A stretch of 4,069 bases of DNA, from the IMG/VR virus record IMGVR_UViG_2548876869_000006, positions 1-4,069 of that record; one strand, written 5' to 3'. The notes under the pieces were generated by a model. The model was not told the DNA's origin. It saw only the letters and a program-made list of their open reading frames with translations, and did no database searches. The stretch's first letter is position 1. The number at the start of each line of letters is the position of its first letter. Shown one piece after another: positions 268-1,431 of this stretch. The translations under genes and the position numbers were made by a program. Source of the stretch: a virus. Its lineage: Duplodnaviria > Heunggongvirae > Uroviricota > Caudoviricetes.

Positions 268-450
268 ATGCGAAAATTCAAAATAATTATTGAAACGGGA
301 ATAGCCGGTGGAGATTTCGAGGATGAATTCGAAGTGGATGATGATGCAACACCAGATGAAATACAGGATGAAGCTAAAGATATTTTCTTTAACTACTGCA
401 ATTACTCATACCACGAAATAAAAGACGAAGAGGAAGAACAAAATGGCTGA
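268..450 (+). CDS. Small highly acidic protein, 60 aa (about 20 Asp/Glu versus 5 Lys/Arg); function unknown
   Basis: ORF in track; ATG 268, TGA 448..450; stop overlaps the start of the next ORF (ATG 443), suggesting translational coupling. Confidence 0.6.
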   Translation: MRKFKIIIETGIAGGDFEDEFEVDDDATPDEIQDEAKDIFFNYCNYSYHEIKDEEEEQNG

Positions 451-619
451 TTTTGGTTCAACTAAATACAACGTCAGTTTTGAAGCATGGCATGAACTGT
501 TAATGGACTATGCAGAGTTACGTGGTGGCAGTGCTGCTGATGCTGAAGCATGGCGTGATGATTATGAAGCAGGAAAAACTCCGGTCGAAGCATATTGTGA
601 TGAGTGGGGCGATGAATGA
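443..619 (+). CDS. Small acidic protein, 58 aa (MADFGSTKYNVSFEAWHELLMDYAELRGGSAADAEAWRDDYEAGKTPVEAYCDEWGDE); not in the ORF track
   Basis: Hand translation: ATG 443..445 with GAGG at 430..433 (9-nt spacer); open to TGA 617..619, which overlaps ATG 616 of the next gene (ATGA). It exactly fills the gap between two coupled genes. About 15 acidic versus 4 basic residues. Confidence 0.55.
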   Translation: MADFGSTKYNVSFEAWHELLMDYAELRGGSAADAEAWRDDYEAGKTPVEAYCDEWGDE

Positions 620-1131
620 GCGAGATTAATTATCAGGAAGGGCATGAAACGGCAGGGCAGGCAAAAACAGTGGCATGGCGATATCGCTACGTGAAAAAAG
701 ACGTTACAGACTTTCAGGGGAAGCCGTGGGCTGGTGACTGGAAATATGTACCGACAAAAGAGGATTGTAACGACAGGCCGAACTATGAAATTCAGGCCTT
801 ATTCATCGGCCCGCCAGTCCCGGTGACATCAGAAGGACTGGTTAAAGCCGTGCGCTTTTATGAACAGGTAAAGCGTGAGAATCCGCCAGTCGAAACAGGA
901 GCATGGAAGGATGCTGTTGACTGGGTGCTCAGAGAGGCCTGCTGCGCTGCCATTCTGGGTAAAGCCGACAATCCACCAGCATCCGGCAATCAGGTTAGCG
1001 AATTAACAATGTGGGTTAAACGACTGGTCAGTCAACTGAAAAAAGCTCAGCCGGACTGCAAATTACCGGAGAAGGCGATGGATTACCTGAAACGAAATGG
1101 ACTGATAAGCGTGGAGGATGTTTTACGATGA
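616..1131 (+). CDS. Hypothetical phage protein, 171 aa, no family recognised
   Basis: ORF in track; ATG 616 overlaps the upstream stop (ATGA); GGGG at 606..609 as SD; ordinary enterobacterial codon use; stop TGA 1129..1131. Confidence 0.75.
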   Translation: MSEINYQEGHETAGQAKTVAWRYRYVKKDVTDFQGKPWAGDWKYVPTKEDCNDRPNYEIQALFIGPPVPVTSEGLVKAVRFYEQVKRENPPVETGAWKDAVDWVLREACCAAILGKADNPPASGNQVSELTMWVKRLVSQLKKAQPDCKLPEKAMDYLKRNGLISVEDVLR

Positions 1132-1251: not shown

Positions 1252-1431
1252 ATGAAAAACGCATTGCAGTTTTTGTTTGTTGCGTTCTGGTTGTTCGCAT
1301 CATGTATGCCCATCATCTTCACAGCAAGGTATATGGAAAAAATTGATGTTTTGATATTAATGTTTGGACATATAAATGCCCTTTTTTTAGGGGTGTTCAT
1401 GGCGGTCATGTGCATTGAATACTGGCGGTAA
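1252..1431 (+). CDS. Small hydrophobic membrane micro-protein, ~59 aa, two predicted transmembrane helices, encoded in an AT-rich insert
   Basis: Track ORF 1213..1431 begins at a GTG with no usable SD; the internal ATG 1252 follows AGGGGG (1242..1247). Product MKNALQFLFVAFWLFASCMPIIFTARYMEKIDVLILMFGHINALFLGVFMAVMCIEYWR has two ~20-residue hydrophobic stretches. The preceding 120 nt are about 33% GC by hand count versus roughly 50% elsewhere. Confidence 0.45.
   Translation: MKNALQFLFVAFWLFASCMPIIFTARYMEKIDVLILMFGHINALFLGVFMAVMCIEYWR

Follow-up and report, generated by a model that had tools for sequence, protein, structure and literature searches.

The locus examined here raises the question of what two very small, strongly acidic, and overlapping open reading frames (ORFs) contribute to the element that carries them and whether they act as a pair. 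A sequence-only reading had proposed that they form a translationally coupled DNA-mimic or antidefense module. Within the 4,069-nucleotide stretch of DNA that we analyzed (here called the window), ORF1 (268..450, plus strand; ATG at 268, TGA at 448 to 450) encodes a 60-aa DUF7167 family protein, and ORF2 (443..619, plus strand; ATG at 443, TGA at 617 to 619) encodes a 58-aa protein of the PHROG 519 type. The two ORFs overlap at positions 443 to 450 (ATGGCTGA), and ORF2 overlaps the next gene, ORF3, whose ATG lies at 616, by ATGA at positions 616 to 619. The ORFs, the overlaps, and the resulting physical coupling of the genes to their neighbors had all been described in that reading and were confirmed from the sequence, and its approximate counts of acidic and basic residues proved exact: 20 D/E versus 5 K/R in ORF1 (net charge, -15; pI 4.05) and 15 versus 4 in ORF2 (net charge, -11; pI 4.06).

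The window is the early right arm of a Rac/Qin-like lambdoid prophage of Escherichia coli, and positions 140 to 1140 are 99.9% identical to E. coli 55989. In that genome, cro-like, ydaT-like, DnaT-like, P, DUF1627, DUF977, and methyltransferase genes and two hypothetical genes are followed by ORF1, ORF2, ORF3, hokD, rem, DUF968 (ydfU), rusA, and the Q antiterminator gene, and the remainder of the window agrees with this order, with Pfam matches to Hok/Gef, DUF968/HNH, and RusA. This gene order, together with those matches and a match to sok, places ORF1 and ORF2 in the region that corresponds to lambda nin. Both genes are part of a long rightward delayed-early polycistronic operon that runs from the replication genes to hok/rem/ydfU/rusA/Q, with the delayed-early timing inferred from gene order. 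A scan of the window detected no sigma-70-like promoter on the plus strand before position 1954 and no intrinsic terminator before position 1914. According to the RefSeq annotation of 55989, neighboring genes throughout the operon overlap, as a rule, at their stop and start codons, an arrangement that is therefore not peculiar to the ORF1-ORF2 pair. A GAGGA Shine-Dalgarno-like motif on the plus strand (430 to 434), within the 3' end of ORF1 and 8 nt 5' of the ATG at 443, may serve as the ribosome-binding site of ORF2. The combination of a stop-start overlap with a GAGGA inside the preceding gene, which is the sequence criterion for translational coupling, would be consistent with coupling of ORF2 to ORF1. 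Downstream, ORF3 (616..1131, plus strand; 171 aa), joined to ORF2 by the ATGA, is a mosaic protein of neutral charge that matches phrog_660 (E value, 2e-72) and, in its C-terminal part, also phrog_924 and phrog_250. Prophages differ in ORF3: the N-terminal ~30 residues are kept, the remainder is exchanged, cut short, or joined to ead/Ea22-like sequences, and some prophages have "ead/Ea22-like" genes in its place or fused to it.

Both ORF1 and ORF2 are real genes, given their low dN/dS ratios, confident AlphaFold models, and homologs of both frames that extend to 30 to 60% identity. Among divergent intact pairs, dN/dS was ~0.02 to 0.14 for both genes, indicating purifying selection. Comparison of ORF1 in the window with three other intact copies gave 8 to 9 synonymous and 1 to 5 nonsynonymous differences (omega, 0.02 to 0.09); two closer pairs gave omega values of 0.26 to 0.33, with just 3 synonymous differences each. 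Comparison of ORF2 with plasmid and ICE copies gave 13 to 19 synonymous and 3 to 11 nonsynonymous differences (omega, 0.04 to 0.14), and the 443..619 frame, for which coding constraint had been set beforehand as a test, is thus clearly constrained. The start at 443 is kept in these plasmid and ICE copies, where the N terminus MADFGSTK is conserved, which bears out the start codon that had been chosen for ORF2. The description of ORF2 as invisible to the ORF track is correct insofar as the gene falls under a 60-aa cutoff, but it does not extend to public annotation, where ORF2 is present in RefSeq/PGAP and in related phage records.

Neither protein had been recognized from the sequence alone; both genes are already catalogued, in uncharacterized families. 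ORF1 matched Pfam DUF7167 (PF23768) at 54.5 bits (cutoff, 24.4), with residues 2 to 53 aligned to profile positions 1 to 60 of 60, and phrog_1997 (PHROG 1997) with an E value of 2.7e-30. Its RefSeq record, WP_001224665.1, is named "DUF7167 family protein." The AlphaFold2 model of ORF1 (mean pLDDT, 86.8) has a predicted beta-hairpin (residues 2 to 9 and 16 to 23), a helix (29 to 43), and a disordered acidic C-terminal tail. In an alignment of 38 DUF7167 members, V6, I8, E9, T10, E22, I32, A36, F40, and C44 were conserved, and net charge per residue ranged from -0.18 to -0.30, with ORF1 at -0.25. ORF1 shares with DUF7167/PHROG 1997 members a stand-alone architecture of ~57 to 60 aa, an IET...E...C motif, and an acidic tail, and it shows no difference from the family, of which it is a typical member. 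DUF7167/PHROG 1997 is an uncharacterized phage family, and a BFVD search with ORF1 matched uncharacterized phage proteins only (from a coliphage and from Lactococcus and Streptomyces phages). Resemblances of ORF1 to the AnkX insertion domain (a subthreshold Pfam match, 17.7 bits versus a cutoff of 27) and to de novo designed repeat proteins (PDB profile matches) were both set aside as compositional, arising from the same "E..DATDEEI" helix.

ORF2 matched phrog_519 with an E value of 2e-22 (81 bits), but only over positions 76 to 137 of the 143 in the profile. It had no match in Pfam, NCBIfam, or PADLOC, and its RefSeq record, WP_000753058.1, is named "hypothetical protein." The AlphaFold2 model (mean pLDDT, 87.8) predicts a three-helix bundle with helices at residues 13 to 26, 34 to 42, and 47 to 55. 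Across 30 relatives, F13, W16, W37, Y41, G44, and P47 were conserved and net charge per residue ranged from -0.05 to -0.30 (ORF2, -0.19). When 1.84 billion cluster representatives were scanned exhaustively with HMMER, ORF2 hit just 58 clusters, all of them short (31 to 127 aa), and a narrower ORF2 alignment used as the query led to 7 species-level loci. The PHROG 519 homologs of Vi01-like phages are 50 to 60% identical to ORF2. In a Salmonella phage survey, PHROG 519 members in Kuttervirus were listed as candidate anti-CRISPRs, by PaCRISPR/AcRanker machine learning only (bioRxiv 10.1101/2022.06.14.493971). A ribbon-helix-helix fold, prompted by a weak PDB profile match to pRN1 ORF56 (2k9i; E value, 0.45), was ruled out: the ORF2 model is all-helical, without an N-terminal strand, and ORF2 is acidic, whereas ribbon-helix-helix proteins are basic. 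The strong acidity that had drawn attention to the two proteins is family-wide; it is kept in every examined member of both families, and specific acidic columns are conserved. In the small and biased sample of 81 small coding sequences from the fetched loci, 9% had a net charge of -0.19 per residue or lower, and most of these were homologs of ORF1 or ORF2.

ORF1 and ORF2 belong to two separate, independently traveling families and do not form a conserved module. Among the fetched loci, lambdoid prophages of E. coli and Shigella were the only setting in which the two genes adjoined, and the two families never occurred together outside these prophages in the loci examined. In two Rac-type copies (L022 and L025), the start codon of ORF1 is gone and a stop interrupts the gene, and ORF2 is intact. 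The possibility that the two genes are diverged duplicates of one another was rejected (hhalign probability, 0.06%). The claim of a paired module therefore did not hold up, since each family mostly occurs without the other, one lineage has a dead ORF1 and an intact ORF2, and the profiles are unrelated.

The horizontal spread of ORF2 relatives is very wide, and they lie among small early or accessory genes across very different mobile elements. A tblastn search found them in 198 phage records (97 from Salmonella, 45 from Klebsiella, and 33 from Escherichia); 178 of the 198 were less than 60% identical, and the sampled rows of this class were mostly ~150- to 160-kb genomes of Vi01-like virulent phages. 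In Vi01, the ORF2 homolog stands alone, directly after the major capsid gene. Relatives were also present on 554 plasmids, 516 of them conjugative, the carriers being IncI2-type and large MOBH conjugative plasmids. On IncI2-type plasmids, ORF2 lies alone between DUF1187 and SPFH genes and heads a transfer-gene operon, ~15 kb from the relaxase gene. The ORF2 copy of the IncI2-type plasmid pEC7518-63k (L016; locus 1140 to 2949) is 86% identical and occurs in about 400 conjugative plasmids of ~60 kb; the operon there comprises a CaiF/GrlA-like regulator, DUF1187, ORF2, SPFH, and NfeD genes and lies upstream of type IV secretion genes. In an SPI-7-type ICE, ORF2 is found alone after ParB, DUF2786, DUF2857, and ParE-like genes. 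Further relatives occur in a Mu-like semi-essential region, in a P4-like element after primase, Dam, and Rv2179c-like exonuclease genes, before SocA_Panacea genes, and in an Erwinia prophage upstream of AAA_24 and SSB genes. DUF2786-domain genes lie a few genes from the ORF2 homolog in both the SPI-7-type ICE (L017, 2456 to 4190) and a Mu-like phage (L040, 4001 to 5657), a possible recurring association.

Relatives of ORF1 were found in 38 records by tblastn (17 from Enterococcus, 10 from Escherichia, 4 from Stx2a phages, and 4 from Klebsiella), and their sites, in unrelated phages, are early regions devoted to DNA metabolism or recombination. In Klebsiella Guernseyvirinae, DUF7167 occurs alone and overlaps the exonuclease gene; in Enterococcus Kochikohdavirus, it occurs alone after an exonuclease gene. 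The temperate-phage arms that carry it have the orders Arf-ERF or AAA_24-SSB-Dam-DUF7167-theta-Exc-Int, GamL-DUF3799-RecT-...-DUF7167, and ERF-YqaJ-SSB-DUF7167, and in Phapecoctavirus it is found in Ter-gene regions. Overall, the neighbors of ORF1 and ORF2 relatives differ in every context, and thus neither gene has a fixed partner gene. In phiWec188 (L007, 2810 to 3004), the gene just 5' of the DUF7167 homolog also ends "...CNSFGFEIL...EEEE"; a tandem DUF7167 paralog was not established there (hhalign probability, 8.8%).

Within E. coli, the 352-nt ORF1-ORF2 pair had a match in 2,114 of 5,426 complete genomes (39%), and 1,755 records covered at least 80% of both genes. A class of copies with ~89% identity to the pair region (268 to 619) accounted for 702 E. 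coli records. In the four such copies sampled (L010, L019, L020, and L023), which serve as a natural control for the coding status of the intact genes, both genes are pseudogenes with identical stops (codon 37 in ORF1 and codon 37 in ORF2), and the ORF2 start is changed from ATG to GTG within a decaying prophage. The flanking methyltransferase gene and ORF3 are frameshifted as well in this lineage, which includes E. coli and Shigella prophages. PhiR42_1, which was deposited as a complete phage genome, has dead copies of ORF1 and ORF2 only, and thus neither gene is essential.

What the two proteins do can be approached by asking what they resemble. Searches of Pfam, NCBIfam, PADLOC, the PDB, predicted folds, and BFVD gave neither ORF a confident homolog of unrelated function. 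Neither ORF had a sequence match in the PDB, family profiles included, and PADLOC and NCBIfam returned nothing for ORF1, ORF2, or ORF3. Our literature search found no paper naming DUF7167 or the RefSeq accessions and nothing functional on the family names. Both proteins are tiny autonomous domains without catalytic-looking features and without similarity to enzymes or known inhibitors. The combination of family-wide acidity and early accessory sites fits stoichiometric inhibitors of host nucleic acid-binding proteins. We tentatively favor, at somewhat less than an even chance, a reading in which ORF1 and ORF2 are each a lone small stoichiometric binder or inhibitor of a host nucleic acid-binding protein. 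Under this proposal, both proteins would probably be translated from the polycistronic delayed-early mRNA after infection or induction, and each, folding autonomously, would act alone and without forming a two-subunit complex. The carboxylate-rich conserved surface, joined in ORF2 by the conserved aromatics, would occupy a basic nucleic acid-binding surface of the target, which could be a host defense or repair factor or, less likely, a DNA-metabolism protein of the mobile element itself. The target would then be neutralized in the early phase of the element's life cycle. Such a mode would be charge mimicry in a broad sense, without a B-DNA-shaped mimic of the Ocr/ArdA type.

The nearest mechanistic precedent that we found, by analogy, is TifA (Orf65) of Enterococcus phage phi47. 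This small and highly acidic protein does not have the shape of DNA, yet it binds and inhibits type IV restriction enzymes; it has two domains, of which the N-terminal one is SH3-like (PMC11322646). Like the mode proposed for ORF1 and ORF2, TifA is a case of a small acidic phage protein directly inhibiting DNA-targeting defense enzymes. Unlike TifA, neither ORF has the two-domain SH3-like architecture, and homology of TifA to the DUF7167 genes of Enterococcus phages was ruled out on this ground. Lambda Gam and T7 Gp5.9 are small acidic RecBCD inhibitors encoded beside phage exonuclease or recombinase genes. Several DUF7167 homologs are sited in the same way, next to exonuclease or recombination genes, whereas ORF1 and ORF2 in the window are not beside recombination genes. 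Neither ORF matched the Gam family in Pfam, and in one prophage (L033) a GamL gene coexists with a DUF7167 gene. Lambda ren counters Rex exclusion, and ren and other nin-region genes share with ORF1 and ORF2 the same postreplication position.

It is important to note that several observations weigh against the two proteins being inhibitors. Small acidic phage proteins serve many other roles, and delayed-early expression is late for blocking the restriction of incoming DNA. The position of the Vi01 homolog behind the capsid gene looks late, and the IncI2 copy, in a transfer-gene operon, is not obviously in the leading region. In addition, both genes are dispensable in PhiR42_1.

If ORF1 and ORF2 acted together to counter restriction-modification or BREX by mimicking B-DNA in the manner of Ocr or ArdA, this would agree with the adjacency and overlap of the genes, with a charge density like that of Ocr, and with their joint inheritance in most of the lambdoid copies of E. 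coli. Ocr (116 residues) forms an elongated, all-helical dimer and ArdA (~165 residues) a dimer with three domains, and upon DNA entry both are the first to be expressed. ORF1 and ORF2 are like Ocr and ArdA in being small, mobile element encoded, and of very high negative charge density, and the high carboxylate density of the DNA-mimic class is present and conserved within both families (net -0.25 per residue in ORF1 and -0.19 in ORF2). They are unlike them in their length of 58 to 60 residues, with monomers far below the size of known B-DNA mimics, and in their delayed-early operon. There was no Ocr-like sequence, with no Pfam match to either ORF besides DUF7167 at an E value of ≤0.1, and no match to an Ocr or ArdA fold. 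The elongated all-helical dimer fold of Ocr that mimics bent B-DNA and the sequence and three-domain ~165-aa fold of ArdA are absent. The ocr gene is the first gene from the entering genome end; ORF1 and ORF2 lie away from the leading, first-expressed end and downstream of the replication genes, so the comparison with early genes such as ocr does not apply. Membership in the Ocr/ArdA class thus fails on sequence, fold, size, and genomic position. With the two families found apart everywhere but in E. coli and Shigella lambdoid prophages, and with ORF2 intact where ORF1 is dead, we regard a coacting pair of this kind as most improbable. Hardly more probable is the view that the genes are lysogenic conversion ("moron") genes that aid the host or are neutral, functionless ORFan passengers. 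Their great frequency in E. coli chromosomes and the fact that their function is not known would suit such genes, but neither a promoter nor a terminator dedicated to them was detected, and they are embedded in a lytic early operon. Both genes are pseudogenized in the decaying ~89% lineage, the opposite of what is expected of a host-beneficial gene, and this joint decay with the prophage argues for a benefit to the element and not to the host. Against neutrality stand the strong purifying selection and the conservation seen both in virulent phages and on plasmids.

A further reading, unlikely in our estimation, is that DUF7167, and perhaps ORF2, serve the DNA metabolism of the element itself as accessory factors, binding and modulating a phage-encoded recombination or replication protein rather than targeting host immunity. 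The partner would be an exonuclease, an annealing protein, or SSB, and the role could be, for example, that of an inhibitor, a chaperone, or a specificity subunit. The overlapping or abutting exonuclease genes in two unrelated groups of virulent phages would fit, as would the three temperate contexts in which DUF7167 lies a few genes from ERF or AAA_24/SSB/Dam, GamL/DUF3799/RecT, and ERF/YqaJ/SSB and the ORF2 relatives that follow the Rv2179c-like exonuclease gene or lie 5' of AAA_24 and SSB. However, the exonuclease of the prophage in the window is ~7 kb from ORF1 and ORF2, on the opposite strand of the other arm. Which kind of recombination gene is adjacent varies from case to case, and such genes are absent from these positions in Phapecoctavirus, Vi01-like phages, and plasmids. 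Proximity is also weak evidence here because unrelated small accessory genes abound in the early arms of temperate phages. On balance, we consider ORF1 and ORF2 to be plausible candidate inhibitors of host proteins, as judged from their sequences and contexts, and not a paired DNA-mimic module.

A more specific version of the host-inhibitor proposal is possible, though doubtful. In this version, ORF2 would be a broadly mobile inhibitor of a conserved enterobacterial DNA-binding defense or repair factor, its family being predicted to fold as an acidic bundle of three helices, 55 to 60 residues long, in which Trp, Tyr, and Phe residues are conserved, and DUF7167, which is conserved from Enterococcus phages to coliphages, would be a second, independent inhibitor that acts on DNA ends or recombination (e.g., on a nuclease). 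The target of ORF2 would be especially interesting because one small gene serves phages, plasmids, and ICEs alike, and the distribution of this family across phages, conjugative plasmids, and ICEs likewise makes it the more attractive one for experiment. If either protein proved to be an inhibitor of host immunity or repair, one Pfam DUF or one large PHROG would gain a function. About 40% of complete E. coli genomes contain sequences that match the pair, and ORF2 relatives are carried by hundreds of conjugative plasmids of the IncI2 type, which have the size class and backbone of plasmids known to carry mcr-1. At present, ORF1 and ORF2 are an ordinary lambdoid accessory gene pair, and their value is that of two well-defined, cheap candidates for antidefense screens.

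Other features of the window were also observed. Positions 1132 to 1530 form a conserved stretch with matches in 1,585 of 5,426 complete E. coli genomes and without RefSeq annotation. Inside it, a plus-strand ORF (1213/1252..1431) encodes a very hydrophobic product of 59 to 72 aa (MKNALQFLFVAFWLF...) that had no match in Pfam, PHROG, NCBIfam, or PADLOC and may be a small membrane protein that annotation has missed. In the same stretch, one phage record instead has a "hornerin" coding sequence on the opposite strand, and in E. coli 55989 an IS1 is inserted just 3' of ORF3 (record positions 1106485 to 1107182). The hok/sok type I toxin-antitoxin locus is complete, with an Rfam sok match at 1521 to 1692 (106.7 bits), a Hok/Gef ORF at 1690 to 1845, and an intrinsic terminator-like hairpin at 1914 to 1931. 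Between rem and ydfU, positions 2380 to 2658 hold a basic 92-aa ORF (phrog_1212) whose end abuts the GTG start of ydfU at 2660; it is annotated as "toxin to Rem" in one phage record and as "hypothetical" in RefSeq.
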